Positions 2,677 through 45,260 of a stretch of DNA of 64,000 bases are shown here, piece after piece. The notes beneath the pieces were generated by a model. It was not told the DNA's origin, ran no database searches, and saw nothing but the letters and a program-made list of their open reading frames with translations. The translations under genes and the position numbers were made by a program. Origin of the DNA: a virus; the IMG/VR virus record IMGVR_UViG_3300005689_000056, positions 35,462-99,461 of that record. The stretch is one strand, 5' to 3'. Positions within the stretch are counted from its first letter, which is position 1. Each line of letters begins with the position of its first letter.

Positions 2677-2700
2677 AATCGATTGCAAAGTGGGGATGCC

Positions 2701-5590: not shown

Positions 5591-5614
5591 CAAAGAAATT
5601 GATACAGGTATAAT
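5587..5614 (+). promoter_or_regulatory. Sigma70-type promoter
   Basis: TTGACA-16 bp-TATAAT, then AGGAGG and ATG 5636. Confidence 0.8.
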
Positions 5615-5635
5615 GTAACTTTCGTAGGAGGCCAT

Positions 5636-8661: not shown

Positions 8662-8705
8662 TACACTTTGAAGGGTGCGGGGGTGTAAGCCTCCGCACAT
8701 ACCAC

Positions 8706-10286
8706 ATGAAAGCCTACGTATCCGGTGCGGTGTATCTCCCACGTAAGTTTTTCGAAAGCCGGGACTTGGAGTCAGACCTGACTATCAAGTACTACAAAAT
8801 GGGTGAGCCAGACCCTCTGTATGTAGAGGCGTTCCAGCACGAAGGTAAGTACGTCGCTGTCCCGCGCGATTACGGTTTGCAATTGATTGCAGATCACGGT
8901 CTAGGCTTTGAAGATCGTATGTCTGACGGGCAGGATATGGACTACCCTAAAGTAGTCAAACACACAGGTGCGTACGCCTACCAGAAAGACTTCGTAAATC
9001 TGATTCTCGAGACTTGCAATGAAAGTAACGACTTTCTGATATCCGCCGCTACCGGTAAAGGTAAGACGGTGATGTCGTTGTCTGTATTCCAGAAGTTGGG
9101 GGTAAACGCTATTGTCGTGGTTGATCAACAAAACCTGCTTGACCAGTGGGTTGATCGAGCCAAGACCGTACTAGGCCTTACCGACGACCAGATAGGTATA
9201 GTGCAGGGGGGCAGAGCGGACTACGAAGGCAAGCATGTAACCATCGCTATGATGCAAACGCTTGTGTCCAGAAAGTACAGCGAGTCTTTCTACGACTACT
9301 TCGGCGTGGTTGTTTTTGACGAGGCCCATACGGCGGGTGCTCCGACATTCTCGCGGGCGTTGATGATGTTCTCGGCCCGTACTAGGTTCGGCGTGTCCGC
9401 TACTATCGAACGTCGCGATGCCTTACAGACTCTGCTTACTCACAACCTTGGGGCGGTTCGGGCAGAGCTAAAAGACAAGCACGACACCTCGTATGTGTAC
9501 TACGTTGAGAACTCAAGCATTTACTCGTGGTATGCAAATGTCTCACCTAAGACGGGCAGAATGCTGTCCGAGGTCGCGGAGGATACCGACAGAAATCTGG
9601 TACTAGCCACAGCGGCTAAATGGCTGTATGACTCAGGAAGAACTGTTCTTGTTCTTAGTGACCGCATCGAGCAGCTTGAAGCCCTACAGGTACTACTATC
9701 CTGTATGGGTGTCCCGGAGGACGAGTCGGCGGTATATACCGGCTACCACACGGTATGGGCGTACCGTAAAAATCCGAGACCGCTACGTAAGCCTATGGAT
9801 TACGTGCGTGGTACGGAATTCACACCGGTCATTCTCACCCCGGTTAAAAAGAAGCTGTCAAAGAAAACTAAGGCGGAGATGTTAGGTAGTACGCCTGCCA
9901 AGATAAAAATATTGCTCGCTACTTTCGGTATGTTCGCTAAGGGCGTGGATGTGCCGGAACTGTCCGGCGGGGTGGATGCCACCCCTAGGGCTAGGGCTGA
10001 GCAGGCTCACGGTAGAATTCTTCGTGTACGAGACGGTAAGCTGGTTCCTATATGGGTGACCCTGCGGGATGTTAATTCTTACCGTAACGATCATCAGTTT
10101 GCACAGCGCGTGAAGGACTACGCGGCGAGTTCTGCGGAGATATACAGATGGAGAATAGGAAAGGGACTGCGTCGAATCGACGTAGACGATCTGGTACGCG
10201 AAGCCAGACAGAACGTAGCACGCCTGAAAAAGCTACGGATCGAAACGAGCTTAGACGGCAACAATACGCTAGTGACCCCGCCCTAG
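8706..10286 (+). CDS. Superfamily 2 (DEAH) helicase
   Basis: AATGKGKT, VFDEAH, SAT, KGVDVP, QAHGRILR. Confidence 0.9.
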   Translation: MKAYVSGAVYLPRKFFESRDLESDLTIKYYKMGEPDPLYVEAFQHEGKYVAVPRDYGLQLIADHGLGFEDRMSDGQDMDYPKVVKHTGAYAYQKDFVNLILETCNESNDFLISAATGKGKTVMSLSVFQKLGVNAIVVVDQQNLLDQWVDRAKTVLGLTDDQIGIVQGGRADYEGKHVTIAMMQTLVSRKYSESFYDYFGVVVFDEAHTAGAPTFSRALMMFSARTRFGVSATIERRDALQTLLTHNLGAVRAELKDKHDTSYVYYVENSSIYSWYANVSPKTGRMLSEVAEDTDRNLVLATAAKWLYDSGRTVLVLSDRIEQLEALQVLLSCMGVPEDESAVYTGYHTVWAYRKNPRPLRKPMDYVRGTEFTPVILTPVKKKLSKKTKAEMLGSTPAKIKILLATFGMFAKGVDVPELSGGVDATPRARAEQAHGRILRVRDGKLVPIWVTLRDVNSYRNDHQFAQRVKDYAASSAEIYRWRIGKGLRRIDVDDLVREARQNVARLKKLRIETSLDGNNTLVTPP

Positions 10287-10693
10287 CAGAACGTATCAAA
10301 CGTAGGCAGCGAGAGGCTTACCGGGATCAGCACCCAAAGCAGGATAGCGCTCTGCGTAATGGTCTCTTGTGTCGTGGGGTCAATCGAGAGGTCACGTATG
10401 GTGAGGAGGGCAGGCCACGCTACCTTGAGGTCTATACGGTACCGGAGGCGGCAGAGGCTATGGGTAGGTCGATGCTCGGGTTTAAGCGCTGGATAACCAA
10501 CGGCCTTATCCCGCCACCCATCCTGCAGGACACGGTTTTTCAGTACAAGCAGTATAGCTATGGGGAGCTTGAGGCTATCCGTAGTGAGATTGTCAGGCAC
10601 GAGCGGGAGTTTTCGTATTTTACTGCCAAGCATCAGGTGACAATTCACCGGGTGTGGCAGGCGGTGCAGGCTTACAGATCGCGACATATGTGA
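10148..10693 (+). CDS. MerR/excisionase-like HTH DNA-binding protein
   Basis: YTVPEAAEAMGRS..GFKRWITNGLIP pattern; start overlaps helicase end and is uncertain. Confidence 0.65.
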   Translation: MENRKGTASNRRRRSGTRSQTERSTPEKATDRNELRRQQYASDPALAERIKRRQREAYRDQHPKQDSALRNGLLCRGVNREVTYGEEGRPRYLEVYTVPEAAEAMGRSMLGFKRWITNGLIPPPILQDTVFQYKQYSYGELEAIRSEIVRHEREFSYFTAKHQVTIHRVWQAVQAYRSRHM

Positions 10694-10701
10694 GGTGAGT
10701 T

Positions 10702-11037
10702 ATGGATTCAGGGAGAGTAAGACGGGTGCGACCCAGCGGTGAGGGGGCTTCCGAGGAAACCGTAGAGGTGGTATCTACCTCGGTTACAGGGCAGGCATCG
10801 CCCACCGTAAAGCAACGTACGCTGAGTGTGCGCAAGTTTGTCACTCAGCCGGCGTACGTAGGGGTCTCTGCCGGGGTAACCAAAGAGACAGGGTCGTACG
10901 AGTTTCTGCGGGTAGACATCACCGTCAATATGCCGTGCTACGTAGAGGAAGTGGATCGCGTATCTCACGAGGTTGCAGAGTATGTTGCGCAGCGTCTTGA
11001 CGAAGAGATAACCGAGTATCTTGGCGGGGAGGAATAA
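10702..11037 (+). CDS. Hypothetical protein with N-terminal GRVRRVRP
   Basis: GAGGTG RBS; tight packing. Confidence 0.75.
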   Translation: MDSGRVRRVRPSGEGASEETVEVVSTSVTGQASPTVKQRTLSVRKFVTQPAYVGVSAGVTKETGSYEFLRVDITVNMPCYVEEVDRVSHEVAEYVAQRLDEEITEYLGGEE

Positions 11038-11038
11038 C

Positions 11039-12160
11039 ATGGCTAGACCTAAGAAGACTGCAGTACCGGAAGACAGCGACGCTAACGAGCTTGAGCAGAC
11101 GCTGAAAGAGGTACGTAAACGCTTCGGCGACACCAGCGTATCGTCTGGCTCGACCATCGTACAGCCGGAGCGAGTGTCTACGGGTAGTTTTGTTTTGGAC
11201 TTCCAGACACTGGGCGGTATCCCGAGAGGGCGAGCCACCATGATTGTCGGAGAGCGCCACTCAGGCAAGACCACTATTGCTTGCAAGGTGACAGCATCCG
11301 CCCAGCGGCAGTACCCGGACGAGGCCGTAGCATTGGTAGATGCAGAGGGTACATTTGACGCTGTTTGGGCGGCTAAACTCGGCGTAGATCTTGATCGCCT
11401 TGTCTTGTTCCAGCCGGAGACTGGAGAGGCAGCGGTAGATGTTATCGATGCATTTATCGGAACGCGAGAAGTCTCTATGGTGATTGTTGATTCTGTCGCC
11501 GCGCTCACCCCGATGGCGGAGATCGAAAGCAGTGCCGAGGATGCACATGTTGGTCTTCAGGCCCGGCTAGTTGGCGGTATGATCCGTAAGGCTACGGCGG
11601 GCATGATTCGCGAGCGTAGGCGCGGCCATAATATCGGGCTACTTTTCCTGAACCAGTACCGTTCGAAGATTGGCGGGTTTGCAAAGTTCGGCGAACCCAA
11701 GACCATCCCCGGCGGCAGGGCGCTGGAGTTCGCCACGTCATTACAGATCGTGATGAAGAACAAAGAGAACACCGGCAAGGACGAGATCGGTAATGACGCT
11801 GTGACTGTAAATGATCATAGCTTCCAGATCACCAAGAACAAGATGAATAGCGGTGGCCGTACCGGTGAGTTCCGGCTGTTGAGGCAAGATGACGACGATC
11901 TCGGCCTGAAGGAAGGGGACATCGACGACGCGGGTACCATGCTGGCTTACGCGAAAAAGTTTGGCGCGTACACTGGAGGCGGTAGCTCTTGGGCTCTTGA
12001 GTTTTGGTCTCATGAGCTAAAGTTCAAGGGGCTGGAGCACGCAAAGCGCGCACTCTACGCAGATCGTTCCTTGTACTGGGATCTACGTAACTTCCTCATT
12101 GCAAGTCAGGCCGAGGCTCTTGGTATGCCTGAGTACTTCGTAGAGAGGTTCCTCGTATGA
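11039..12160 (+). CDS. recA: RecA-family recombinase
   Basis: STGSFVLD..GGIPRGR, GERHSGKTT, VDAEG, IVDSVAAL, PGGRALEF. Confidence 0.93.
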   Translation: MARPKKTAVPEDSDANELEQTLKEVRKRFGDTSVSSGSTIVQPERVSTGSFVLDFQTLGGIPRGRATMIVGERHSGKTTIACKVTASAQRQYPDEAVALVDAEGTFDAVWAAKLGVDLDRLVLFQPETGEAAVDVIDAFIGTREVSMVIVDSVAALTPMAEIESSAEDAHVGLQARLVGGMIRKATAGMIRERRRGHNIGLLFLNQYRSKIGGFAKFGEPKTIPGGRALEFATSLQIVMKNKENTGKDEIGNDAVTVNDHSFQITKNKMNSGGRTGEFRLLRQDDDDLGLKEGDIDDAGTMLAYAKKFGAYTGGGSSWALEFWSHELKFKGLEHAKRALYADRSLYWDLRNFLIASQAEALGMPEYFVERFLV

Positions 12161-12522
12161 GTCGCGAGTCTTTTCTGAATCGCGATACCAAGCACGGTAA
12201 CGCCTCTTACCGCAGATCTCGTAAACAGGAGAAAGAACTGTCTATCAGGCTGCGGGGGAGGCAAACTGTAGCGTCGGGTAGTAAAGCAGAGAAGGGGGAT
12301 GTGAGGGTCAAGCGTATTCTACGGCTTGAGGCGAAGACGACTAAACATCGCAGCTTTTCTGTAACCCTTGACATGATTAATCAGATAGAGGAGGCTGCGC
12401 TTTCGAGCGAGGAGCTTCCCTGCATCTTGATAGAGTTCAACGATGGCAACGGCAAGCGAATCAAAGAAGTGGCCGTAGTACCAAGTTACGTACTTGACGA
12501 CCTTGTCTCTAAACATAGTTGA
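12157..12522 (+). CDS. PD-(D/E)XK nuclease, Hjc-like resolvase
   Basis: QEKE..SGS..KGDV..LEAK spacing. Confidence 0.65.
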   Translation: MSRESFLNRDTKHGNASYRRSRKQEKELSIRLRGRQTVASGSKAEKGDVRVKRILRLEAKTTKHRSFSVTLDMINQIEEAALSSEELPCILIEFNDGNGKRIKEVAVVPSYVLDDLVSKHS

Positions 12523-12536
12523 AATCGATTGCAAAC

Positions 12537-13415
12537 ATGACTACCAAATCCAGAGTAGTGCGCCGTAAAAAGGCTGACCCGGAAGGCGATTCACCCGTAG
12601 TGGTTTATGGGCAAGATGATACCCCGGTAATTGACTTGCTTCTTAGTGCTAAGCGCAAGCGTGACAAGTTTCGGAGAGGCGAGTACCTGCACGTATCCGA
12701 CGTGGTAGGTAAGTGCGTACGTAAGATAGCGCTGTCGGAGGCACACGGGATGCCTATGCCTACTGAGCCTATCACGCACTCGATGGCAATGACCTTTGCA
12801 CAGGGTAGTGCCTTGCACGACTACGTGAAGAGCGCACTTGTGCGACACCCCGACATGCCACTATGGGGGTCTTGGACTTGCAAGTGTGGAGCCAGTTTGG
12901 AGGAGCGTCGTTCTCATGCTGAGGTGGCTGATCTGCATTGCGAGGATTGTGGGGGGCCTCTCGATCAGTATGTAGAGATTGACATCAAGGATACGGAGTT
13001 ACTGGTTAGCGGTTCGCCTGACGTTATCCTGAAAGAACCGACCAAGAACTGCTACCACATTCTTGAAATCAAATCGATGTCTCATGAGGAGTGGAAGGGT
13101 CTCGTACGCGCCAAGCCTGACCATATTGTGCAGGTCGTCATGTACTGGTATCTCATGCGTCGGGCGGGGTTCCGTACCACCTCTACGGTCTCTGTACTAT
13201 ATGTCACCAAGGGTTTTGTGTTTAAAGGCCAGCCCTTCAAAGAGTTCGTTATTGATTGTGATACCGCGCTACGCCATATTGATGACTACATCGAGGACGC
13301 AAAGGCCTTCGCTCGTTTTCGCGAGACAGGCGAGCTACCGGTACGTACCAAGTGCGCAACGATAAATTGCCCAGAAGCTAAGAAGTGTCACGTAGCTATG
13401 GAGTGTTTCTCGTGA
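12537..13415 (+). CDS. Cas4-like PD-(D/E)XK exonuclease
   Basis: CVRK, G..LH, GSPD..LEIKS, QVVMY, C-terminal Cys cluster. Confidence 0.75.
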   Translation: MTTKSRVVRRKKADPEGDSPVVVYGQDDTPVIDLLLSAKRKRDKFRRGEYLHVSDVVGKCVRKIALSEAHGMPMPTEPITHSMAMTFAQGSALHDYVKSALVRHPDMPLWGSWTCKCGASLEERRSHAEVADLHCEDCGGPLDQYVEIDIKDTELLVSGSPDVILKEPTKNCYHILEIKSMSHEEWKGLVRAKPDHIVQVVMYWYLMRRAGFRTTSTVSVLYVTKGFVFKGQPFKEFVIDCDTALRHIDDYIEDAKAFARFRETGELPVRTKCATINCPEAKKCHVAMECFS

Positions 13416-13939
13416 TAGTCATGGGTATGGACCCCAGCCTTACCAGCTTTGGGGTTGCCTATCGCGATGTCGGGGGGAGGCTGTGCGCTAACAGGATCAG
13501 CACGCCCGGCAACAAGCGCGGGTCGGAGCGTCTTGATTACCTAGAAACTACCGTAGCCTACTATCTGGATAAGTACAAACCTGAAGTAGTAGCCTACGAG
13601 GATTACGCGTATGGTAAAGGCCCGCGCAACAGCAATAACCTTTTCGGTATTGGGGAGCTAGGCGGGGTAATTAAGTTATTGCTTTACCGTCGTGGGGTTG
13701 CTATATTGACGGTTCCACCGACGAGCCTAAAACTTTTCGCTACTGGCTCAGGGCGTGCCGAGAAGTCGGACGTAGCCGCATTCATCCAAGAGACAGAGGG
13801 GGTAACTTTTGCAACGTCCGACCAGAGCGATGCGGCAGCGCTTCTGAAGTTGGGCGAGATGGCGACGCATACTACAATGAGGCCTCGCTTACGGACCCAC
13901 CCGCAGCGCAGGGCGATAGCAGGTTGTCAATGGTTGTAG
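13412..13939 (+). CDS. RuvC-like Holliday junction resolvase
   Basis: GMDPSLTSFG, AYED, ELGGVIK, DQSDAA. Confidence 0.85.
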   Translation: MIVMGMDPSLTSFGVAYRDVGGRLCANRISTPGNKRGSERLDYLETTVAYYLDKYKPEVVAYEDYAYGKGPRNSNNLFGIGELGGVIKLLLYRRGVAILTVPPTSLKLFATGSGRAEKSDVAAFIQETEGVTFATSDQSDAAALLKLGEMATHTTMRPRLRTHPQRRAIAGCQWL

Positions 13940-14052
13940 TTTGCAATCGATATCAAATTTTCTGGCGTTTGCAGTTTTTGAAGAACGTAGTACTATTCAT
14001 CCACGCAGTAACCACGCATCGGTAACAATCCATCAACTGATAGGTACCCAAA

Positions 14053-15417
14053 ATGGCAAAGAAAGCAGCATTCAAGATCGGTGACACCGTCAATTTCCTC
14101 GGCTACTCCGAGGAGATGCCTGACAACGAAAAGATCCTCACCGAAGGCAACACCTACACGGTGGTTGAGGTAAACGACGCAGAGGAACTGGTCAGCGTCG
14201 AGATGGCGAACCCGGAATTCAACCCGAAGAAGGCCGAAAGCGACAAGAACCCGAAGACCCTGATTGTCGATGTCTTCCTCAACGAAGTCGAGCTTGCCGA
14301 CGGTGAGGAAGAAGAGGCCCCGCCGCCGAAGAAGGCTGCTTCCAAGACCGCCGCCAAGGGCAAGGCCAAGGGCAAGGCTGTCGCTGAGGAAGAAGAGGAA
14401 GAAGAGGAAGAGGAAGCCGACGAGGAAGAGGAAGAAGAAGAGGAAGAAGCCCCGCCGCCGAAGAAGACCGCCGCCAAGGGCAAGGCCGCTGCCAAGGAAG
14501 AAACCAAGGCCAAGACTCCGGCGAAGAAAACTGCCGCGAAGGCTCCTGCCAAGGCTGACGCCAAGACGAAGGCTCCCGCCAAGTCGAAGGCCAAGGACGA
14601 AGAAGAGGCCGACGAGGACGATCTGCCCGATCTGGAGAACGAAGACGAGGAAGTCGCAGCCTTGGTCGAAGAGGCCGAAAACGTCCTCGATCTGGCCGAA
14701 GAACTGATCAATGACAGCGCGGCAATCGACTACAAGCTGGGCGGCGTGCTCTACCATATCCGCAAGGGCAAGTTGCACCACAAGGCCGACAAGCGCTACC
14801 GCGAGGCCGGCGGCTTTGGTCTCTACGTCAAGGAACGCCTGAACGTCGAGTACCGCAAGGCGATGAACCTGATCGAGATCTACGTCAACTTCAACCTCGC
14901 CGGCATCAGCGGTGAGAAGGTGGCCGAGATCGGCTGGACCAAGGCAAGCAAGATCGCCTCGCTGATGAGCCAGAAGCTCAAGGGCGGCGCAGAGGTCGAT
15001 GACCTTGGCGAACTCGGCGAAGAACTGGTCAAGGTCGCCGAGAATTCGTCGGTCAGCGATCTGGTCGATACGATCAAGGAAGATTACGCAGTTGCCGGCG
15101 CCAGCAAGGGCGAAAAGGTCAAGCGTATTACCTTCCGGTTCCGCCTGATCGAGAACGCCGGGGCGGCAGTCACCGAGGTACTGGAGGCTCAGGCGAAGCT
15201 GATGGGGGCGAAAGACTTGTCGGATGCTTTCGAACACATCGTGATGGAATGGGCCGTCGAGCATATGGACACCCCGCCCGAGATCAAGGTGCCGGCCGAG
15301 GGCAAGACGGCAGGCAAGTCGGCAGGCAAGTCGGCAGGTAAGGCAGCATCTGCCTCCACCGCCAAGGGCAAGACGGCAGGCAAGACCACCGCCCGCCGTG
15401 CCCGTACCGAAGAGTAA
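14053..15417 (+). CDS. Acidic and Lys/Ala-rich protein, likely abundant
   Basis: Strong codon bias, upstream TTGCAG-16-TACTAT, own terminator, poly-E and histone-like KKTAAK blocks. Confidence 0.85.
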   Translation: MAKKAAFKIGDTVNFLGYSEEMPDNEKILTEGNTYTVVEVNDAEELVSVEMANPEFNPKKAESDKNPKTLIVDVFLNEVELADGEEEEAPPPKKAASKTAAKGKAKGKAVAEEEEEEEEEEADEEEEEEEEEAPPPKKTAAKGKAAAKEETKAKTPAKKTAAKAPAKADAKTKAPAKSKAKDEEEADEDDLPDLENEDEEVAALVEEAENVLDLAEELINDSAAIDYKLGGVLYHIRKGKLHHKADKRYREAGGFGLYVKERLNVEYRKAMNLIEIYVNFNLAGISGEKVAEIGWTKASKIASLMSQKLKGGAEVDDLGELGEELVKVAENSSVSDLVDTIKEDYAVAGASKGEKVKRITFRFRLIENAGAAVTEVLEAQAKLMGAKDLSDAFEHIVMEWAVEHMDTPPEIKVPAEGKTAGKSAGKSAGKAASASTAKGKTAGKTTARRARTEE

Positions 15418-15438
15418 TCTTCCCTCACGGTAGTACCG

Positions 15439-19454: not shown

Positions 19455-22336
19455 CTGCCACACACACCCGCCGCGTAGGGAGACGACGGACCCCGGGTGC
19501 CGCGCCGGGGGTTAGCGAGCAGGCTCGCGCCATGGTTCAAGGGGCGTGGGAGGAGGCTGAACGTTGCGAGAATAAGCTGTTCGGTGAGATGTACGCCACC
19601 GCGTTAGAGCGCAAGGTGTATTACAACGATACGGTGCTATTCGACTTCATGAAGCACCTCACGCACGCTCCGGTAGGCATAGAAGAGTTTCTGTCGGGGT
19701 CGGAGTTTCTGGGGGCTACTGACATATCGTTGTGGCCCGAAGTACGCGCAGCCATCGTTGATATTAACAAGTACTGGTGGAAAGGTCAGGTAGGAGGGGC
19801 CAAGCATGAGGCTCTTCTGATGGGCTCGTGTGTAGACGCGCTAACCGAGTTTTTAACCCCGAACGGCTGGAAGTATATTTCCGATTTTGAGGAAGGTGAT
19901 CTTGTCGGTCAATACTCGGTAGACGGTACTCTAGAGTTTGTGACACCGCAGGCGTACATCCGCCGCCGCCACCGAATGTTTTACCACTTCGCACCTCGGG
20001 GCGGTCTGGATATGATGTTAACTCCGGGGCATCGCGTTATCTACCGGAACAGGAACACCGGGGAAATCTGCGAGATGTCCGCAGAGGACGTGGCCGAGAA
20101 CCACAATAGAACTGCTACCGGGTTCACAGGTAAGTTCCTATCTACCTTTACCCCTACGGGGCGGGTAGGGATTGATCTATCCGACGAACAGATCCGTGTG
20201 ATGGTTATGGTTCATGCCGATGGCTCCTTTGATACAAGGGATGACTCCAGTTGGTGTAATGTGATCGTAAAAAAGCCGCGGAAAATTCGCAGGGCTAGGC
20301 GTATCCTTCAGGAGGCGGGTATTGCGTTTACTGAAGTACCGCACAACGGAGACTACCGCCGCATCCGTTTTTACGCGCCGCAACGGAACAAGACATACGA
20401 GGGTTGGTGGGGTTGCACACAGGACCAGCTCCGTATTGTTACCGACGAGGTAATGCACTGGGATGGCTCCGCGAGGCACCAACAGTTCTACACTGCGAAG
20501 AAAGAGGAAGCTGATTTCATCCAGTACGCCTATCTCGCTACAGGGGTACGGGCTACCATGCAGTGGCAAGATCGCGGGGGAAATCGGTCTGTCGAGTATA
20601 GGGTGAAGCGTTGTCGTTCCGCTGAATACACCATGTCCGCTTCGCCTAAAGGGCCTGAAGCACAGCTTGTTGAAGCCAGTGATGGGTATTGCTACTGCTT
20701 CACACTGCCTACGGGTATGTGGTTGGCGAGGCGCAACGGTAGTGTATACGTCACCGGGAACACAGGTAGCGGAAAAACGGAAATATCGAAGATTACCCAG
20801 CTATACCACCTTTACCTGTTGTCCTGCTTGGACAACCCGCAAGGCTACTACGGCCTGCCGAAAGCGACCTCTATTGTGTTCGCTATCATGGCCGCTAAGC
20901 CGCACGTGACGAAGAAGGTTATCTACGACCCTCTGCGCCACATGATTGAGCACATCCCGTATTTTCAGAAGCACCTACGACCGAGCAAGCTGGTTGAGTC
21001 CGAGATGATCTTTGAGGAGAAGAACATCCGTGTAGTGCCTGCGGGTGTGGACGCCGACTCGATCCTAGGTGAAGCAGTACTTTCGGGGATCATTGACGAA
21101 ATCAACTTCATGAACGTTGTGCTACGTTCTAAGAAGGCAGAGGTAACCACAGGCCGCGCTGGGGTCTACGATCAGGCCCAGACAATACACAGTGCAATGA
21201 CCCGCCGTATCAAGGGTCGTTTCACCAAGCCCGGACCCAAGATAGGGATACTCTGTACGTCATCGTCAACCCGCTATAAAGGGGACTTTACCGACAAGCG
21301 TAAGGCTCAGGCTCTGCAGCACGACGAGCAAGGTATCTACATCTACGATAGGCCGCAATACGAGGTAAAACCTCAAGAAAATTTCTGTGGGCAAAAGTTT
21401 AGGCTGCTTGTCGGTAACGACATGATCAACGATGTGCGTATCCTGAAGGACGGGGACGCCGTACCGCCAGAGGCTCGCGTTCTAGACATCCCCATCGAGT
21501 ATGAGACGGAGTTCCAGAGAGACCCGCATTCCGCCCTACGAGACATCTGCGGTATATCCACCTCGGCTATTTCCCCCTTCATTACCCGTCGTTTCAAGAT
21601 CTACGAGGCTGTGTCTGCCGGGGAGGAGGAAGGTATCCAGTCGTTCCTCAACAAGGACAACGTTATTCTAGGTGTGGATGGGATGCCGGTCGTGAAGTAC
21701 AGCCATTACTGTACCGACCCCTCACGTCCGCGCTATGTGCACGTTGACTTGTCGAAGACCGGGGACAGTTGTGGTATCGCCATGCTGAGATACGATGGCC
21801 TCACCTCCGTTACACGCAGTAATGGGGCTATCGAGAAGCTACCTATCGCTACCATTGAGATGGCGTGCTCAATACAGCCTGACTCCAATAATGAAATAGA
21901 TTTTGCGGAGGTTCGTACATGGATACGGCAGCTACGTGATGTATACGGGTACCCGATCAGGGCGGTAACATACGACGGTATCTTTAGTATCGAGTCCGTA
22001 CAGCAGTGGCGCAAGATAGGTATGCGCACTGGTAATATTTCGGTAGACAGAACGTCCGCACCGTACAAAAACCTGCGTGACGCCTATAACGATAACCGCA
22101 TACGGCAGTACCATCAGGAGGTACTGATCCGCGAGCTTTTTGATTTGGAGTACGATGACGATAAGGACAAAGTCGATCACCCGGTGAATGGCAGTAAGGA
22201 TGTGGCGGATGCAGTGGCCGGCGCCTACTACTCGATGCTGACCAAGCGCAGTACTTGGGTGTCCGAGTCAGGTAACGAGGTAATAGGTAATGGCCGTGCG
22301 GAATTTGGTGAACGTTTCGAGGGGAGTAGGCGATGA
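19451..22336 (+). CDS. Terminase large subunit, intein-containing
   Basis: Walker A GS/TGSGKT split by an insertion, IIDEINF Walker B, HVDLS..DSCG and KDVADA nuclease motifs. Confidence 0.92.
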   Translation: MTATHTRRVGRRRTPGAAPGVSEQARAMVQGAWEEAERCENKLFGEMYATALERKVYYNDTVLFDFMKHLTHAPVGIEEFLSGSEFLGATDISLWPEVRAAIVDINKYWWKGQVGGAKHEALLMGSCVDALTEFLTPNGWKYISDFEEGDLVGQYSVDGTLEFVTPQAYIRRRHRMFYHFAPRGGLDMMLTPGHRVIYRNRNTGEICEMSAEDVAENHNRTATGFTGKFLSTFTPTGRVGIDLSDEQIRVMVMVHADGSFDTRDDSSWCNVIVKKPRKIRRARRILQEAGIAFTEVPHNGDYRRIRFYAPQRNKTYEGWWGCTQDQLRIVTDEVMHWDGSARHQQFYTAKKEEADFIQYAYLATGVRATMQWQDRGGNRSVEYRVKRCRSAEYTMSASPKGPEAQLVEASDGYCYCFTLPTGMWLARRNGSVYVTGNTGSGKTEISKITQLYHLYLLSCLDNPQGYYGLPKATSIVFAIMAAKPHVTKKVIYDPLRHMIEHIPYFQKHLRPSKLVESEMIFEEKNIRVVPAGVDADSILGEAVLSGIIDEINFMNVVLRSKKAEVTTGRAGVYDQAQTIHSAMTRRIKGRFTKPGPKIGILCTSSSTRYKGDFTDKRKAQALQHDEQGIYIYDRPQYEVKPQENFCGQKFRLLVGNDMINDVRILKDGDAVPPEARVLDIPIEYETEFQRDPHSALRDICGISTSAISPFITRRFKIYEAVSAGEEEGIQSFLNKDNVILGVDGMPVVKYSHYCTDPSRPRYVHVDLSKTGDSCGIAMLRYDGLTSVTRSNGAIEKLPIATIEMACSIQPDSNNEIDFAEVRTWIRQLRDVYGYPIRAVTYDGIFSIESVQQWRKIGMRTGNISVDRTSAPYKNLRDAYNDNRIRQYHQEVLIRELFDLEYDDDKDKVDHPVNGSKDVADAVAGAYYSMLTKRSTWVSESGNEVIGNGRAEFGERFEGSRR
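19829..20761 (+). mobile_element. Intein (311 aa) with LAGLIDADG-like endonuclease region
   Basis: Begins CVDALTEFLTPNGW, has TPGH block B, HADGS and HWDGS motifs, ends RRNGSVYVTGN before Thr. Confidence 0.9.
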
Positions 22337-22638
22337 TTGAGGATAGCTGGATCGCATTTGGGTGCATATCTTACGCGTTTATTGGCCTGCTTAAGGTAGT
22401 AGTGGTTTTCCACTCAGCCGTGTATGCAGGCTACGTGTATCAGACATTGAGCTACCGACATACCCGCAGTAGCGTTACGCGTCTTGAGCGCAGGCTATAT
22501 ACGGCTATCTGCTTGGCGGTGGTTGCAGTGTTGTGGCCGTTGATGCTTTTGCGGGAGGGTCGTAGGTTTTTCGTAGCTTACGGCAGGCATGAGGTCTATC
22601 GGGCGATTGAGCTTGAGATGGTGAACAGATACCTCTGA
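22333..22638 (+). CDS. Small membrane protein
   Basis: Two hydrophobic segments; overlaps TerL stop. Confidence 0.6.
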   Translation: MIEDSWIAFGCISYAFIGLLKVVVVFHSAVYAGYVYQTLSYRHTRSSVTRLERRLYTAICLAVVAVLWPLMLLREGRRFFVAYGRHEVYRAIELEMVNRYL

Positions 22639-39250: not shown

Positions 39251-39508
39251 ATGGAATCACGCACCTACCAGACACTGCAGGGCCATAAGTTGTGGCCTTG
39301 GTATAGCATCCGCATCGAAACGAGGGGCGGGTCAAAGCATGTGACGTTTTGCTCCCGCGTACATGTGAATACGGAAGTAGAGGTGGGTTTCTGTTACGAC
39401 GCCTACCAATTCTCGGACCACCAGATTCTGGCAGACCGTGATTTGATGACGTGGGTAATCAACCGATACGGTGTGTCTCTGTTCGACGGCGATGTTAGCG
39501 CGGGGTGA
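39251..39508 (+). CDS. Hypothetical protein
   Basis: AAGGT RBS after a palindrome. Confidence 0.6.
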   Translation: MESRTYQTLQGHKLWPWYSIRIETRGGSKHVTFCSRVHVNTEVEVGFCYDAYQFSDHQILADRDLMTWVINRYGVSLFDGDVSAG

Positions 39509-39514
39509 TACAGA

Positions 39515-39715
39515 ATGACCAATCAGACATTAACCAAACCGCACATCAGGATTCTGCGTAGCTCAGGGGCGGTGTACGAGTGCCAGCTACCGGGCGGGGC
39601 GGTCACTGGATGGGGCGATACACCCGAGCAGGCGTATAAGAACTGGGCGGAGATGATGCGTTCGCAGTACGGCACATCGAAACCTGCCCGGCGGGGGGAT
39701 ACCTTATATCAATAG
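39515..39715 (+). CDS. Small hypothetical protein
   Basis: GGGGTG RBS; GWGDTPEQAY. Confidence 0.6.
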   Translation: MTNQTLTKPHIRILRSSGAVYECQLPGGAVTGWGDTPEQAYKNWAEMMRSQYGTSKPARRGDTLYQ

Positions 39716-40044
39716 TAAATCCCCCGCTACTGCTATGTATGCGAATAAGTGGGCGGGGGGCATATTAATAATCCTATATATTACTGTTACTCTGTCTTAC
39801 ACGATCCCCTCTGGCCTGACTGTTTTCTGCTGCTGGCACAAATTTAAAATGTGCTATATACAATTCGTGCTGTTCTGCTATTGTGCTGGCCTACCGTAAG
39901 TTACTGATATTGTTGAAAATTATGTGCTGGCACAGGTCCGCATCAACCTACTGGTGCTGTTCGTGAAGCCTGTAATGTGGTGCTGATTACTGGTGCTGAG
40001 TGCTGAAACGTGGTGCTGCTGGCTGCTGAAATGTGGTGCTGCCG

Positions 40045-40127
40045 TGGTATATACTGTTGGTGCCTCATGGTATATACTGTTGCGGTTTATGGTATATACT
40101 GTTGGGGGTTTATGGTATATACCGTGG
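40045..40127 (+). repeat. Four direct repeats of TGGTATATACTGTTG, period 22-23 bp
   Basis: Copies start at 40045, 40068, 40090 and 40113 (last is TGGTATATACCGTGG). Confidence 0.9.
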
Positions 40128-40136
40128 AGAAAAGTG

Positions 40137-40388
40137 ATGGCTTTCAAGAGTGATGACGGGGTTAAAGTACGTAAGGTTTTGTTGTCTCTGGATGAAGAAA
40201 CCATAGAAGTGTTTCGTAGTGTTGGGGGAGGTAATGTGAGTCTAGGTGCTCGTATGGTTGCTAAAGGACGCCCCCGCAAAAAGGTGCAGAAGAGTTTAGA
40301 GGAGCGCTGTGATGAGCACTTCGAAAAGCTGGGGGTTAAACCATCGTTGGTTGCTAGGCGGCGGTGGATGCACGATAACGCTGATTAG
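40137..40388 (+). CDS. Ribbon-helix-helix-like DNA-binding protein
   Basis: GGAGA RBS; RKVLLSLDEETIEVFRSVGGGNVSLGAR pattern. Confidence 0.6.
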   Translation: MAFKSDDGVKVRKVLLSLDEETIEVFRSVGGGNVSLGARMVAKGRPRKKVQKSLEERCDEHFEKLGVKPSLVARRRWMHDNAD

Positions 40389-40457
40389 TTTGCAATCGAT
40401 TGCACGAGGTAAGATAGGGGCTCTTAACCACCCCGCAACTCATACAGGAGTTCTACC

Positions 40458-40832
40458 ATGAACGACCAGAACAACGAAACTGATGCCGTCCCGTTTCGCT
40501 CGGCGAATCGCAAGTTCTATGACCACGTGTGCGCGTTCCTCGAAGAGAACGGTTACTGTGTCGTACCGTTCGCCACGTGGTTGGATATTCGCGGTATGGC
40601 TTTTAACCTTAGCCGTATCCACGCGATCAAACTGCTCCGCAATCAGGCGTTCTATACGGAGAAGAAGACGGTCATCCTGCCGGAGGATTTCACCCGCCTG
40701 CCGAATCGCGCTTTCGTGCAGTACACGTTCAAGTATTGTGCTACCGAGATCGTGACGCGTAGGCTCTCACTCTCTGACGCCAAATGCATCATCGACTTGT
40801 TGATCTACAACGAGGACGCGTTCGGTAAGTAA
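40458..40832 (+). CDS. Hypothetical protein
   Basis: CTCATACAGGAG leader. Confidence 0.7.
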   Translation: MNDQNNETDAVPFRSANRKFYDHVCAFLEENGYCVVPFATWLDIRGMAFNLSRIHAIKLLRNQAFYTEKKTVILPEDFTRLPNRAFVQYTFKYCATEIVTRRLSLSDAKCIIDLLIYNEDAFGK

Positions 40833-40897
40833 TTCTGGCGGGGGGAGATGTACCCTGTCTCCCCTACAATAAAGGTTCTTAAACAGGAGGCCACATC

Positions 40898-41158
40898 ATG
40901 AAACTGAGCGCACTCAAAAAACTGGTAGCAGACATGGAGGAACTGACCCTCGACCGTGACCCGGATGTCCGCTTCTACATCACCCGCAACGAGGCTGAAC
41001 GCGAAGCCGGTCCCAAACAGTCTGCTCACTTTATCGAGATGGAGCCACATGCCAACACCTCCCTGCGCGATTGCGTGGTTGTCGTGCAGTACCCCGAGTT
41101 GATCCCTGATGTAGGCGACTTCTCCATCCCGATGACCCTCCTCAACGTGTATCGCTGA
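40898..41158 (+). CDS. Hypothetical protein
   Basis: ACAGGAGG RBS; terminator follows. Confidence 0.7.
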   Translation: MKLSALKKLVADMEELTLDRDPDVRFYITRNEAEREAGPKQSAHFIEMEPHANTSLRDCVVVVQYPELIPDVGDFSIPMTLLNVYR

Positions 41159-41163
41159 TCACG

Positions 41164-41183
41164 GGGGCGAAAGCCCCTTTTTT
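41164..41183 (+). terminator. Intrinsic terminator
   Basis: GGGGC-GAAA-GCCCC-TTTTTT. Confidence 0.85.
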
Positions 41184-41369
41184 ATTGTGTCTAAAATATT
41201 GTGCTGGCACCGCGCCACCATAACCTACTGGTGCTGTATCGTACCTCCCGCACCCTGCTGCTGGTGAGTGGTGCTGAAGTGGTGATATGTGGTGGGTTAG
41301 CCGGCAACCTGACGCGGGCGGGGTACTGACCTTACGCCATAATGGAACCCTCACAAAGGAGAACGCACC

Positions 41370-41558
41370 ATGTACGAAGCCCGTATCTTTCTTATCGATG
41401 AACAAGGCACCCGTGACCTCTTCACCAATCGCGTTTTTCACGGCGAAGACCGCGATCAAGCGGAAGACCGCGCCTGCAAATACCTCAACGATACCGACGC
41501 CGACAGCAAGGTCGGTGAGGAATGCGTTTTCGATATCGTCGTTTCGGCGAGGCACTGA
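41370..41558 (+). CDS. Hypothetical protein
   Basis: CTCACAAAGGAG leader. Confidence 0.7.
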   Translation: MYEARIFLIDEQGTRDLFTNRVFHGEDRDQAEDRACKYLNDTDADSKVGEECVFDIVVSARH

Positions 41559-41632
41559 AATGCAATTGATTGCACTCACCGCGTGGGGCGCGCTCGTCTA
41601 TTACGCGTTCTACACCTTCTGAGAGGTACATC

Positions 41633-41818
41633 ATGGAACACTGCACATACTCTGAGTTGAAGCGCAGTACTCTGTGGTACTGGTTCTTGATCTATAAACT
41701 TTACGTTGATGGGGTCTGCATGGATATAAAGGCGGGGGTGATGGATGATTTCGGTAACTTCTACCCCCTGACATATGGTAAGACCAGTATGGTTCTGCGT
41801 CCGGGAGATGGCAGTTAA
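41633..41818 (+). CDS. Hypothetical protein
   Basis: GAGGT RBS. Confidence 0.55.
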   Translation: MEHCTYSELKRSTLWYWFLIYKLYVDGVCMDIKAGVMDDFGNFYPLTYGKTSMVLRPGDGS

Positions 41819-41873
41819 CCTGCGGGGCTTCGGCCCCAAAATTCTATACTGGCACGTGCGCCGTATAACCATA

Positions 41874-42011
41874 GTGCTGCCTGAGCGCTGCGTAGCGCTG
41901 GTGACTGCTGCCGAGTGCTGGTGACTGGTGAGTGCTGGTGGTGCTGATGGGTGGTGGCACTGGTGCTGACTGACTGCTGCTGGTGGGTGGCTCCAGACCG
42001 TTGGTGCCCTG
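41874..42011 (+). repeat. CTG/GTG-saturated non-coding tract
   Basis: About 31 CTG/GTG triplets in 138 nt; GCTGGTGG at 41934 and 41979; similar tracts at ~39950-40045 and ~41227-41295. Confidence 0.8.
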
Positions 42012-42055
42012 CCCCGGACCTATCCAGACGGGGTAGGTCGCGCACCCATTTCGGG

Positions 42056-42102
42056 TTATCCACATATCCACAGGAAACGCCACCCGCGCGAAGTTATTCA
42101 CA
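42056..42102 (+). promoter_or_regulatory. Cluster of DnaA-box-like 9-mers
   Basis: TTATCCACA 42056, ATATCCACA 42064, TTATTCACA 42094. Confidence 0.6.
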
Positions 42103-42190
42103 GGTCGAGATTTTGCAACCGATTGCAAGACCCATGCCAATTTGTGCCGCCATGGCGAAGAAAAAGTTTTCAGATAATGGCTAAGAATCC

Positions 42191-42219
42191 TTTACATGCA
42201 CCTATTCATAGACTACTAT
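42191..42219 (+). promoter_or_regulatory. Sigma70-type promoter
   Basis: TTTACA-17 bp-TACTAT. Confidence 0.6.
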
Positions 42220-42338
42220 TCAGTTGTCGCAGGTAAGGCGGCTACCCCTAGATTCACGGGCGAGACCAAACGGCTAACTACCGAATGGCGCGAGAGCGGA
42301 AAACGGAAAACGTAGCACTCTTTCATAAAGGAAAAACC

Positions 42339-42794
42339 ATGAGCACCCAAAAGCAAACCCAAGTTCAAGCCCAGACCCAGACCCAGACCACCGCGAAGGC
42401 GAAGGCGAAGGCGAAGGCGCCCAGCAAGGCGCAACAGGTCGCAGCGAAAACAGCAGCAGTTGCGACGAAAGCGGTATCGGGCGTAACCCTTGAACAAATT
42501 GCAGTATTGTCAGATATCGCGAAGCGCTTTATCGCTCGGGGTATTGAGTACCATGGCAAGCAAGGGAGCATCCAAAAAGCCGATGGCCGCATAACGGCGA
42601 TTGGAAAACTTGCCAACCGGGCAATCAAGGATAAAGAAGCGATTCTAAAATCGCTTCATACGGGATGCGATACCCCACAAGGCGGTAAAATGGTCCGGGT
42701 CGCAGGCGGAAAATTCCCGTATCAGTTGCAAGACGCCTACCTCGTAAGCGGTCGCGCGGATTCGCAGGCAGTTTTCTCGCTTCTACTTTCCTAA
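42339..42794 (+). CDS. Basic hypothetical protein with QT/AK repeats
   Basis: AAGGA RBS; hairpin follows. Confidence 0.75.
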   Translation: MSTQKQTQVQAQTQTQTTAKAKAKAKAPSKAQQVAAKTAAVATKAVSGVTLEQIAVLSDIAKRFIARGIEYHGKQGSIQKADGRITAIGKLANRAIKDKEAILKSLHTGCDTPQGGKMVRVAGGKFPYQLQDAYLVSGRADSQAVFSLLLS

Positions 42795-42844
42795 TCTAAT
42801 CGCCCCGATCAAACGGTCGGGGCAAGCCTACAAAGGGGCGCACC

Positions 42845-43204
42845 ATGAAAACAGACATCAAAGGCAAGATTTACTCCATCCGCTATATGAATAGCATGCG
42901 CCTATGTCGCGCGCAGTCAGCAGAGCAAGCGCGGCGGATCTTCGCGCGCTCGATTAATTCAGAGGTTGCCGATGGCAGGCGCCATGTCCGGATCAGCATT
43001 GAACAGGTCCGGGTCTATGCCGGCAGCCTTTCCGATATCGCACAGTCGGGATACGATGCGGCATGCCGCGCGGATCTCGAGCATGTAACGGCTTCGCGCG
43101 AGTTGCGCGCAATGCACAAGCAATCGTACTTTAATTGGGCATTGAATCCGAACGAAGTCAAACGGGATAAGGTAATGGGCAAACTTGCGCGGCTCTTCGC
43201 GTAA
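42845..43204 (+). CDS. Hypothetical protein
   Basis: AAGGGG RBS; hairpin follows. Confidence 0.7.
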   Translation: MKTDIKGKIYSIRYMNSMRLCRAQSAEQARRIFARSINSEVADGRRHVRISIEQVRVYAGSLSDIAQSGYDAACRADLEHVTASRELRAMHKQSYFNWALNPNEVKRDKVMGKLARLFA

Positions 43205-43265
43205 CGCAAGCGCCCCCCAGTCGAAAGGCAGGGGGGGCATCTTCCTATACAGAGGAAAAACAACC

Positions 43266-43367
43266 ATGATCAAATCGACCTTATTCATCGTTGGCGGGTA
43301 TCTCTCTTTCATCGCGTATGAATTCCATGCCGCGATACAAGCCATTGCGGATTTGATGGCGCGATAG
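43266..43367 (+). CDS. 33-aa hydrophobic peptide
   Basis: GAGGA RBS. Confidence 0.55.
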   Translation: MIKSTLFIVGGYLSFIAYEFHAAIQAIADLMAR

Positions 43368-43381
43368 CCTAGGCAATATCC

Positions 43382-43425
43382 ATGCCCGGTCTAAAAAATC
43401 GGGCATAGAATTTTTCTATTTTTTT
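43382..43425 (+). terminator. Probable terminator
   Basis: ATGCCCGGT..ATCGGGCAT stem followed by T-rich tracts. Confidence 0.55.
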
Positions 43426-43704
43426 ATGTAGGTACGTGCTGTCACTTTTTTCTACATACCGAGTTTTTGAATGACTATATACAATTCTTGCCTTTGATCC
43501 CTCAATGATCCCTCAACAAGTTTGCAGGTCGTAGCAGGGAACCCATCTAGCCGAGCGCACAGGTAAAACACGGTTTCGTGCGGGGGAGGGTGGAGTCGTT
43601 CTCTACTTAGTATTTACTTGCGGGCGCCCCTATACAATTCTTTACCCACTCTACGATGATTCGTGACCTTGTCGTATGCGGTTTTACCTACGATATTTCT
43701 GGTA

Positions 43705-43733
43705 TTGAAGGTATATACAATTCTTGGTATAAT
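43705..43733 (+). promoter_or_regulatory. Sigma70-type promoter with extended -10
   Basis: TTGAAG-17 bp-TATAAT with TGn; TATATACAATTC box in the spacer. Confidence 0.7.
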
Positions 43734-43796
43734 GGCCGTAATAGGTATTGGGTTGATTTTGCAATCGATTGCAGTTTCTTGCGAGTCGGGGGAGGT

Positions 43797-45260
43797 ATGG
43801 CTAAGCGGATCAAGGTTGTGCGCGGTAGGGTTGGGGAGGGTGTTGGGGGTGGGGAAGTACAGTACCCGGAGCATGAGTCGTATGTGGCTTATCGTGGGGA
43901 TTTGTATGTTGTGGTTGGGCATCGGAAGGACATTGGGTTGGTGCAGGTGCGGAAGTGGCATGCGCAAGGGGTTGCCAGCCAGATGGTTCCGGTGTCGGAT
44001 GTCGCTCGGGTGAGTTTGTATTGGGTGGAGGCGTACATCGAGAGGTTTGAGCGGGCGCTTGAGGGGATGCGGGGTTGGTGTCGGAGTCGCCGTAATCAGA
44101 GGGCTAGCGAGGAGGTTTATAACAACCTTGTGGCGTCACTGCAGCAGGACGGCACGCAGGACTTGGACGGCGGGTGGGCCTCTCTGTTAGGTTCTGTGGA
44201 CGTTGCGGATAATGGTGGGTCGGCGGCGTTGTTGAATATGGATTATGCTGCCATCGAGAATAGAGTAATGGCGCATATCGATGGCTTGCCATTATTTTCA
44301 GATATCGGCGGGCGGGCCTCTACGGCGGGCACAGCGAGACAGGCAGCGCTAGGCATGCTTCGTACCGTTGGGGGCGGATTTCCTGTTGATATGCAGGACT
44401 TGGTAGAGGCGTTCAGGACGTACCGTACGGTGATGTACAAGTTGGCGAGCGAGGCCGGGTACCGTATAGGCATCGCGCTGGGGTCGGATGTAGCTACCCT
44501 GAACCAGCAGGCGGGCGTGTTTCGCATCCTACAGATAGATGACGACGCAGACGGTTTTCGCACGCAGGTGGTTATTGTCCGGGCGCACGCTCTTGAGTAC
44601 ATGTTTGACCTTGGCTCCAGCACGGCTGCACCACTTACAGGGATAGCACGTGGGGTCATCGTGTATAGAACCTCTGGCGATGATGTAGTTGCAGCTAGAG
44701 GTGTGTATCGCGCGCTCGACACCGACTACATCCATATGGAGGCAGAAACCTACGGTGGAGTTCCGTCTGTGCCTCGCGAGATACACAGAAGCGCTATCCT
44801 CGGATACTACATCGCCAAACAGGACATACTGTACGCCGAGTCGCTACCGTCGCTAATAGGTAAGCGCGTGAGTATGCTCGTACATGCACCCGAAGAAGCA
44901 TATAGCAGCGTAGGGACGGTTACGGGTGTAGTTCTGGGCATGCCCGGAAACGATATGCGTGTGCGGACAGACCAGAGTGACTACTCTACGTTCGTCAGCC
45001 GCGATAGGATACACCGTCTTACGGTAATGGGGGATGCGGTAGTGGATGCTAACCATGCCTTAGTAAGCTGGTCGGTGCGTTCAAGACTCGGTATGAGCGA
45101 CACTCCGATAAACGTGACGTATATCGATAGCGCTCGCGTAGTTACTACCCTACCTGCATTACGAGTCAGCCATACTGCCGGAGCGGTAAGCGTTGTGGAG
45201 GCAGGTACTAACGATGAGCCTGCCGCTATACCTCGTAGCAGCTTGATGATGGTGAGGTAG
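43797..45260 (+). CDS. Hypothetical multidomain protein
   Basis: GGAGGT RBS before ATG 43797. Confidence 0.75.
   Translation: MAKRIKVVRGRVGEGVGGGEVQYPEHESYVAYRGDLYVVVGHRKDIGLVQVRKWHAQGVASQMVPVSDVARVSLYWVEAYIERFERALEGMRGWCRSRRNQRASEEVYNNLVASLQQDGTQDLDGGWASLLGSVDVADNGGSAALLNMDYAAIENRVMAHIDGLPLFSDIGGRASTAGTARQAALGMLRTVGGGFPVDMQDLVEAFRTYRTVMYKLASEAGYRIGIALGSDVATLNQQAGVFRILQIDDDADGFRTQVVIVRAHALEYMFDLGSSTAAPLTGIARGVIVYRTSGDDVVAARGVYRALDTDYIHMEAETYGGVPSVPREIHRSAILGYYIAKQDILYAESLPSLIGKRVSMLVHAPEEAYSSVGTVTGVVLGMPGNDMRVRTDQSDYSTFVSRDRIHRLTVMGDAVVDANHALVSWSVRSRLGMSDTPINVTYIDSARVVTTLPALRVSHTAGAVSVVEAGTNDEPAAIPRSSLMMVR

Follow-up and report, generated by a model that had tools for sequence, protein, structure and literature searches.

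In the 64,000-nt stretch of viral DNA analysed here (IMG/VR virus record IMGVR_UViG_3300005689_000056, positions 35,462 to 99,461; hereafter the window), the + strand holds a zone at 42012-43435 from which the triplets CTG and GTG, written (C/G)TG below, have been purged, and this zone is directly preceded by an array saturated with the same triplets. The purge acts on synonymous and non-coding positions; arrays and purge are conserved over five zones, that of the window and those of four diverged metagenomic relatives, and the layout recurs with a second triplet, (A/T)G(A/G/T), in more distant cultured phages. The feature is probably a DNA-level one, linked to a DNA end, and not an mRNA-level one, because the zones extend past promoters and terminators. 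We lean towards the view that it is a cis element tied to the processing of the end that is left unpackaged by the pac cut, and the wider frame of end processing seems to us more probable than not. The source genome, that of a sludge phage, is 99,461 bp long and was assembled as one circular contig, with all long open reading frames (ORFs) on the + strand.

The original prediction for this DNA had reported neither CTG nor GTG on the + strand of 42147-43435, with ATG and TTG together about 45 times; our direct count in any frame gave CTG 0, GTG 0, ATG 27 and TTG 18. CAG (31) and CAC (9) occur in the same interval, which confirms that the avoidance is strand-specific, and the GTG at 42144 is indeed the sole (C/G)TG between 42012 and 43435. 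The (C/G)TG-to-(C/G)TG distance on the + strand is 1,292 bp (42144 to 43436), the gap for CTG only is 1,430 bp (42009 to 43439), and the runner-up (C/G)TG gap on the + strand of the whole 99,461-bp genome is 164 bp. The arrays, the zone and the features inside and bordering it are as follows.

39815-40055, + strand: triplet array 1, tandem (C/G)TG runs and then four GGTATATAC repeats, with 37 (C/G)TG and 3 CA(C/G) in 241 nt
41198-41295, + strand: triplet array 2, directly 3' of a terminator, with 16 (C/G)TG in 98 nt
41868-42012, + strand: triplet array 3, the left border of the free zone, with 31 (C/G)TG and 2 CA(C/G) in 145 nt
42012-43435, + strand: (C/G)TG-free zone with the single GTG at 42144, and 0 against about 47 expected in 42145-43435
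42056-42102, + strand, single orientation: cluster of DnaA boxes (TTATCCACA at 42056, ATATCCACA at 42063, TTATTCACA at 42094)
42113-42128, no strand assigned: 16-bp palindrome TTGCAACCGATTGCAA, one copy of a genome-wide palindrome
42191-42219, + strand: sigma70-like promoter (TTTACA, 17-nt spacer, TACTAT), whose 9/12 match to the consensus is alone not above chance
42339-42794, + strand: ORF1, 151 amino acids, with a Lys/Ala/Thr-rich tail and a conserved YHxKQG core; the gene is kept in every (C/G)TG-class zone
42845-43204, + strand: ORF2, 119 amino acids, with one homologue at 81% identity and no family match
43266-43367, + strand: ORF3, a hydrophobic peptide of 33 amino acids, taken from the ORF list
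43382-43428, + strand: terminator hairpin (43382-43406) and T-run, overlapping the 18-nt word AAAAAATCGGGCATAGAA
43436-43520, + strand: right border, the first GTGCTG and then short direct repeats; if the Rhodobacter phage RcDurkin is a guide, the pac cut should lie here

Genome frequencies predict 24.0 CTG and 23.3 GTG for the zone. A first-order Markov model trained on the block itself, which already carries the depletion, still predicted 16.1 +/- 4.0 (C/G)TG, with a minimum of 5 in 2,000 simulations. When the amino acid sequences of ORF1, ORF2 and ORF3 were fixed and the codons were sampled from the phage's own usage, the expected numbers of (C/G)TG were 13.2, 10.7 and 2.1, respectively (about 26), and 0 were observed. 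The non-coding parts of the zone are just as empty as the ORFs, and the complementary words are at normal density. Selection thus acts here on nucleotides, in all frames and on one strand; the Markov and synonymous-codon tests rule out chance or composition as the cause. Avoidance of restriction sites or palindromes needs depletion on both strands and does not agree with the CAG and CAC counts, and explanations of the purge by duplex structure fail because the complementary triplets are abundant. The idea that the zone is kept unstructured as RNA or single-stranded DNA was also rejected, as it folds at least as well as the controls (z = -1.7 vs -0.8). A gap this strong that is common to two different triplets was absent from about 193 kb of unrelated viral contigs and from L338C and HJ05, where single-triplet gap scores are mostly 15 or less. 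No Rfam match was found in 39500-44000. Elsewhere in the window, 14041-15431 is without TAG, GTA, TGT and TAC over 0.6-1.4 kb and without CA(C/G) for 464 bp; this stretch sits in overlapping long ORFs on both strands and is probably a gene of unusual composition, that is, a different phenomenon.

The saturated tract that the original prediction placed directly before the block is array 3. All three arrays are non-coding, with (C/G)TG tiled head to tail at a dominant spacing of 3 nt, followed by 4 and 7 nt. The four STGSTG hexamers GTGGTG, CTGGTG, GTGCTG and CTGCTG are nearly equal in the arrays (34, 32, 27 and 25, respectively), and complementary words are almost missing. Array 3 contains two exact copies of GCTGGTGG, the E. 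coli Chi octamer (41934 and 41979), which look like by-products of the tiling because 18 of the 21 in-phase (STG)3 runs on the + strand of the genome sit in arrays 1-3. A hairpin that ends the upstream genes precedes arrays 2 and 3, with a T-run after the array-2 hairpin and none after the array-3 hairpin. Ahead of each array there is a "CTGGCAC box" (an A-rich run, TGTGCTGGCAC, 10 nt, then ATAACCTA; 39916, 41193 and 41838). It was tried as a sigma54 promoter and rejected, as its spacing to the GC element is wrong; the ATAACC of this region recurs in the repeats that follow the pac site of RcDurkin.

The nearest named relatives of the source phage are the Pseudomonas Samunaviruses SM1 and PaMx31 (PolA identity 49%). 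Searching viral contigs with a neighbouring 534-amino-acid protein, ORF1 or ORF2 gave no close relatives, and a first metagenome scan was likewise empty. A search with the portal protein gave three diverged viral contigs, G1, G2 and G3 (portal identity 62%, 57% and 51%, respectively; GC content of G3 38%), to which we added L042, a relative of G3 whose ORF1 is merely 58% identical. All four carry, on the gene strand, one or more arrays and then a (C/G)TG-free zone of 0.9-1.5 kb. The zones of G1 and G2 are 755 and 747 bp long, respectively (945 and 896 bp if one CTG is allowed), and those of G3 and L042 are 1,523 and 1,529 bp long; upstream of its array, G3 has another such zone, at least 882 bp long. 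In the five zones pooled, GTG was observed 0 times against 79.7 expected and CTG 2 times against 75.9 expected, and the next most depleted triplet stands at 0.38. Synonymous resampling of their coding parts predicted 85 (C/G)TG and 2 were observed. The original prediction would have been contradicted by close relatives that use the triplets freely, but all four metagenomic relatives keep the avoidance; free use was seen only in the more distant SM1, which has an equivalent array with two Chi octamers but no zone. The 18-nt word AAAAAATCGGGCATAGAA at the terminator is common to the window and G1; as a diagnostic marker it was rejected, since its 12 other matches in viral contigs are what chance gives.

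One gene of the ORF1 family lies in each of the five zones, with protein identity down to 20-58%. The family has 13 members, all metagenomic, with the YHxKQG core and an N-terminal tail rich in Lys, Ala, Ser and Thr. ORF1 has no sequence match in Pfam, PHROG or PDB, its AlphaFold model is poor (pLDDT 53) and gave no Foldseek match, and the ESM Atlas gave only weak winged-helix-like leads. A tblastn search of cultured phages with the family found no match; SM1 gp093 is a weak ORF1-like gene (E = 1.5e-4). In G2, a similar small hydrophobic ORF, read by eye and unaligned, follows ORF1 as ORF3 does here, and it is not triplet-free there.

A general scan for coincident triplet gaps led to more distant relatives with a second class of zone. 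In Agrobacterium phage JP1, the six triplets AGA, AGG, AGT, TGA, TGG and TGT are all absent from 85,230-86,640 (0 vs 99 expected), and a purine-rich, C-poor array saturated with (A/T)G(A/G/T), or WGD, lies directly before this zone. In RcDurkin, an array precedes a 1,449-bp gap for the same triplets (0 vs about 106 expected), and an extra mini-zone of 350 bp lies between two further arrays; RcTiptonus has the same architecture. The arrays of this class tile in 3-nt steps as purine-rich (WGD)n and have no octamer in common. The main gene of these zones (RcDurkin gp141, JP1_136) encodes a protein of about 190-210 amino acids, with a Lys/Ala/Pro-rich N-terminal tail in gp141 and Lys/Ala repeats at the C-terminus only in JP1_136. 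The sequence similarity of both to ORF1 is marginal, and hhalign of the ORF1 family against JP1_136 gave no support. No comparable zone was found in L338C, HJ05 or SM1, nor in the unrelated viral contigs. Directly upstream of the last array, RcDurkin (92,646-92,834) and also RcTiptonus, RcMenchie and RcKickapoo have a 62-amino-acid gene annotated as "RNA polymerase inhibitor"; the position of this gene next to the last array of these RcF phages suggests that arrays and zone lie in the host-takeover (early) region.

The link to packaging comes from RcDurkin and RcTiptonus. PhageTerm classed both as "P1-type headful", with the left end at the pac cut and a spread right end, and each record contains a single copy of the genome (PMC8601537). 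The zone reaches the last base of both, and in the RcDurkin record the first forbidden WGD is at nt 3. Because the zone runs to the end of a record that starts at pac, its distal border coincides with the published pac terminus within 2 nt; the two phages are close relatives and count as one observation. The zone lies on the non-packaged side of the cut, and the 3' end of the purged strand is at the orphan end. The original prediction had offered primase, a Chi-like nuclease stop, a terminase or end-processing scan and an RNase as readers of (C/G)TG, and had considered that the block may be a terminal repeat or first-injected DNA. This last proposal is not supported, because packaging in the mapped relatives is of the headful type, with a single defined end, and leaves the zone on the unpackaged side. 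A strand-reading enzyme is still the most economical kind of explanation for an avoidance that is real, selected and strand-specific, and the primase and end-processing options fit the new evidence that the equivalent zone ends at the pac terminus. Just after the mapped cut, RcDurkin 1-300 carries about nine copies of ATAACCGATT and several of AAAAATTCCAGCA, plausibly the binding repeats of the terminase small subunit; their equivalent in the window is the direct repeats after the right border, two copies of TGATCCCTCAA and two of TATACAATTCTT, which span 43478-43642.

As we read it, the element has two parts on one strand: one to three arrays that tile one degenerate triplet, and then a purged zone of 0.9-1.5 kb that would run up to the cut. 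In this phage the triplet is (C/G)TG; the relatives that infect Rhodobacter and Agrobacterium use (A/T)G(A/G/T). The terminase cut of the concatemer would set the upstream "orphan" end free, with the purged strand presumably as its 3'-ending strand, and 5'-to-3' resection would expose this strand as a single-stranded 3' tail of about 1 kb. The tail could then invade another genome copy and start recombination-dependent replication that proceeds the way all genes point. An enzyme acting on single-stranded DNA would recognise the forbidden triplet. Primase is the best candidate in the case of (C/G)TG, as E. coli DnaG has 5'-CTG as its site. A site-free tail would receive no priming and no fill-in and would stay single-stranded, while the arrays, as the densest packing of sites, would force priming and fill-in once resection passes the inner border, with arrays 2 and 1 as possible back-ups. 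This version with primase and resection is tentative, and we hold it with less confidence than the end-processing element as such.

In agreement with this proposal, all phages of the group encode a Cas4/RecB-like exonuclease, RecA and resolvases. The primase gene of the window (6055-7050) has Toprim and DnaG catalytic-core matches. T7 primase recognises 5'-GTC and that of T4 5'-GTT/GCT; primase sites normally carry a central pyrimidine. (C/G)TG has such a central pyrimidine and includes the DnaG site; (A/T)G(A/G/T) has a central G, and its complement HCW would fit.

Several points weigh against this interpretation. The central G of WGD is atypical for a primase on that strand, and a primase as reader would imply that the strand protected in one class is the opposite of that in the other. 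The genes for replication and recombination are also present in SM1, L338C and HJ05, which have no zone; no gene tracks the presence of the zone, and no "reader" gene exclusive to zone-bearing phages was found. A mapped pac is confined to RcDurkin and RcTiptonus, so that in the (C/G)TG class the cut is placed by analogy, and one Samunavirus relative was reported to be circularly permuted without a defined end (PMC10281142). The records of RcKickapoo and RcMenchie begin elsewhere in the same zone. Extra zones, the one upstream of the G3 array and the 350-bp one of RcDurkin, lie away from any known cut. We infer resection, the tail and priming, that is, all of the mechanism beyond the sequence statistics and the published end mapping.

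The other features inside the zone were compared among the relatives as well. Two of the three copies of the exact DnaA box TTATNCACA in the window lie in the 42056-42102 cluster. In G3 (L041/L024) and L042, 5 + 4 boxes flank the zones in one orientation; the perfect boxes are at 1116-1231 and 2483-2581 in G3, in gene orientation, and at 184-299 and 1557-1655 in L042. There is no exact box at all in G1, the nearest in G2 is about 380 nt beyond the zone, and these two carry other repeats in place of the boxes (CATGAAAA and ACAGGAAGG). The clusters recall the boxes of the T5 injection-stop region and bipartite origins. The palindrome (TTGCAAnnnnTTGCAA) also occurs in the 40389 and 41560 regions of the window and is conserved in the wider phage group. 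Its exact copies number 15 in HJ05, 5 in RcDurkin and 1 in L338C, and several copies occur in JP1 and G3; in G3 it is placed upstream of the ORF1 promoter, and SM1 carries the variant TTGCAAGCGCTTGCAC. It often adjoins a TATATAC-type motif and gene starts, and may serve as an operator or for the loading of a ParB-type protein.

Some intergenic repeats were also noticed in the relatives. A cassette with a GACGGCC...GGCCGTC hairpin followed by TATAGGATTATATATC ATG is repeated between the genes within the zone of G3 (L041; about 1913-2235), and in L042 (980-1310), and may be an attenuator or a processing signal. In SM1 (21640-22280 and 22560-22590), CCTATATAGG is repeated between early genes and occurs once as TATAGGGAGACC, which resembles the start region of a T7-type promoter. 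In G3, GGGAGACCAT follows a mini-array; a single-subunit RNA polymerase is not annotated in these phages.

Apart from the end-processing element that we prefer, four explanations were weighed. The first is Chi-like attenuation, in which RecBCD, AddAB or a phage analogue would enter the orphan end, degrade the zone along the 3'-ending strand and be switched off at the arrays, so that the rest of the concatemer is protected and RecA is loaded. Exact GCTGGTGG is present in the arrays of the window, SM1, G1 and G3 in the orientation that an enzyme arriving from the zone would encounter, the three arrays stand in series, and in RcDurkin the zone adjoins the pac end as mapped. For the octamers to be read correctly, the DNA end has to be at the right border of the zone, and such an end has been mapped in RcDurkin and RcTiptonus only. 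The cos-Chi orientation rule of lambda and the Chi-rich lambdoid phages are reportedly precedents. However, a Chi cluster would consist of repeats of the host octamer, whereas the arrays are degenerate triplet tilings in which four hexamers are equally common, and those of the second class are purine-rich and share no octamer. Avoidance of an 8-mer does not need the purge of every 3-mer, and hosts with 38% to 58% GC are unlikely to share one Chi. Chi-like attenuation therefore appears to us unlikely, though still the best of the four.

The second explanation is the exclusion of a DNA-modification motif. A mark on the C or A of 5'-CA(C/G), or on the T or G of (C/G)TG, would leave the strand beside pac unmarked and the arrays heavily marked, which could control pac cutting or the use of the end. 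Dam methylation controls pac cutting in P1. This phage has a module of ParB, ParB-methyltransferase-fold and CmoA-like genes next to the terminase, and the genome-wide 16-bp palindrome could load ParB-type clamps. Homologues of the module were undetected in JP1 and RcDurkin; JP1 has a glycosyltransferase and a ParB-like nuclease, and RcKickapoo, a relative of RcDurkin, has a restriction-type methyltransferase, so that different candidate enzymes could explain the different triplet of the second class. Methylation control of pac was also invoked for the RcF phages by the authors of PMC8601537. On the other hand, SM1 and HJ05 have the same module yet no zone, no chemistry or motif is known, and there is no clear reason why a single strand should stay unmarked over 1.3 kb. 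We regard this explanation as quite improbable.

The third explanation is the control of priming near an origin, in which the DnaA boxes, the palindrome and the AT-rich promoter region would form an origin, and a lagging-strand template without primase sites for 1.3 kb would either place the whole operon on a single Okazaki fragment or favour replication that runs with transcription. DnaA clusters of one orientation lie where the zone begins in this phage and at both zone ends in G3 and L042, the zone is of the size of an Okazaki fragment, all genes are on one strand, and CTG is the DnaG site. We nevertheless doubt it strongly: exact DnaA boxes are missing from the zones of G1 and G2 and from their immediate flanks, GC skew shows no switch, and the end of the zone exactly at the pac cut of RcDurkin is left unexplained. 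The known system that comes nearest is that of the DnaA-trios, which are likewise one-strand tandem trinucleotide arrays near DnaA boxes, as beside array 3 and in G3. The trios have a 3'-GAT-5' consensus and lie within 16 bp of a box in a fixed orientation (PMC8287927); the system calls for three or more NAN trios with an AT-rich element after them. The spacing and orientation here differ from that system, as the boxes of the window are about 45 bp from the array and in the opposite orientation, and unwinding by boxes and trios was rejected.

The original prediction also matched the block to one transcription unit. A promoter, three small genes and a terminator are present, but the block is not simply this unit, because about 80-215 bp of triplet-free DNA precede the sigma70-like promoter. 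A cause at the mRNA level is unlikely, and the immunity of an early mRNA that, without (C/G)UG, escapes an endoribonuclease (as ACA-less mRNAs escape MazF) or an RNA-binding shut-off factor is the least probable of the explanations. In its favour, the avoidance is in the sense strand, its 3' border here is about 10 nt after the terminator, a cutter would impose such zero tolerance, and the operon looks early, with its sigma70-like promoter and, in the RcF phages, the RNA polymerase inhibitor gene just upstream. Against it, the zones begin next to the array and thus 170-300 nt ahead of the predicted sigma70-like promoters, the stretch from array to promoter has 1 triplet against about 28 expected by our estimate, the arrays closely follow terminators, the zones of JP1 and RcDurkin run 170-230 nt past the last terminator (in RcDurkin up to the pac cut), and no RNase family was found. 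The RNase acting on the earliest mRNA, which the original prediction had listed, is thus not supported.

A complete one-strand ban on a trinucleotide over more than 1 kb has survived deep divergence and has changed its triplet in a sister clade; at a defined point of the phage cycle, some machine must therefore read single triplets on one DNA strand. If the link to pac holds, the element addresses an old gap, the fate of the non-encapsidated end after the first cut, and would tie packaging to recombination-dependent replication. The forbidden triplet would then report the specificity of an enzyme (a primase, a Cas4-like nuclease or a modification enzyme) in uncultured phages, as a computational read-out for which other phage genomes can be scanned. 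Two carriers are cultured and tractable, RcDurkin with the host Rhodobacter capsulatus and JP1 with the host Agrobacterium. It is possible, although we propose it with reserve, that this is a new class of cis element, "array plus exclusion zone", with a clade-specific degenerate triplet, in which about 1 kb of the 3' strand is shielded from a triplet-reading enzyme of single-stranded DNA, this enzyme is made to act at the arrays, and the packaging cut is recycled into a start of recombination-dependent replication. Our literature searches brought up no account of a triplet exclusion that is bounded, complete and strand-specific and that adjoins a saturated array.

Known systems share parts of this design. 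The EcoP15I sites of T7, which all point one way, and the APOBEC-type depletion in early viral genes (PMC8115780) are also one-strand depletions of a short motif attributed to a strand-reading host enzyme; those cases are genome-wide or statistical, whereas the exclusion here is sharply bounded, complete and joined to a saturated array. The T5 injection-stop region is similar in its DnaA-box clusters and dense repeats, in being non-coding and in lying beside early genes of a large siphovirus (bioRxiv 10.1101/866236). T5 has long terminal repeats, in contrast to the headful packaging of the mapped relatives, and an analogue of its first-step transfer was rejected, as nt 1-14000 of T5 hold no triplet-free zone. 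Chi, as it acts with RecBCD and at lambda cos, is likewise a polar, strand-specific signal read from one double-strand end, and the octamers here face the predicted cut; the difference lies in the degenerate 3-nt tilings and in the unrelated purine-rich triplets of the second class, and we know of no Chi system with a zone purged of every constituent 3-mer. To our knowledge, no well-established enzyme class other than primase reads a specific trinucleotide on one DNA strand, and neither a zone free of primase sites nor an array of them has been described. Of the two triplets forbidden here, CTG is one, whereas the triplet of the second class, with its central G, departs from primase sites. Known pac regions are 0.1-0.3 kb long and consist of protein-binding repeats, and we know of none whose defining mark is that a triplet is missing for more than 1 kb. 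Still, those of SPP1 (pacL, pacC and pacR) and P1 (methylation-controlled hexamers) are, like the element described here, asymmetric elements that flank a defined first cut; the cut of the RcF phages has the zone directly on one side and short repeats on the other.

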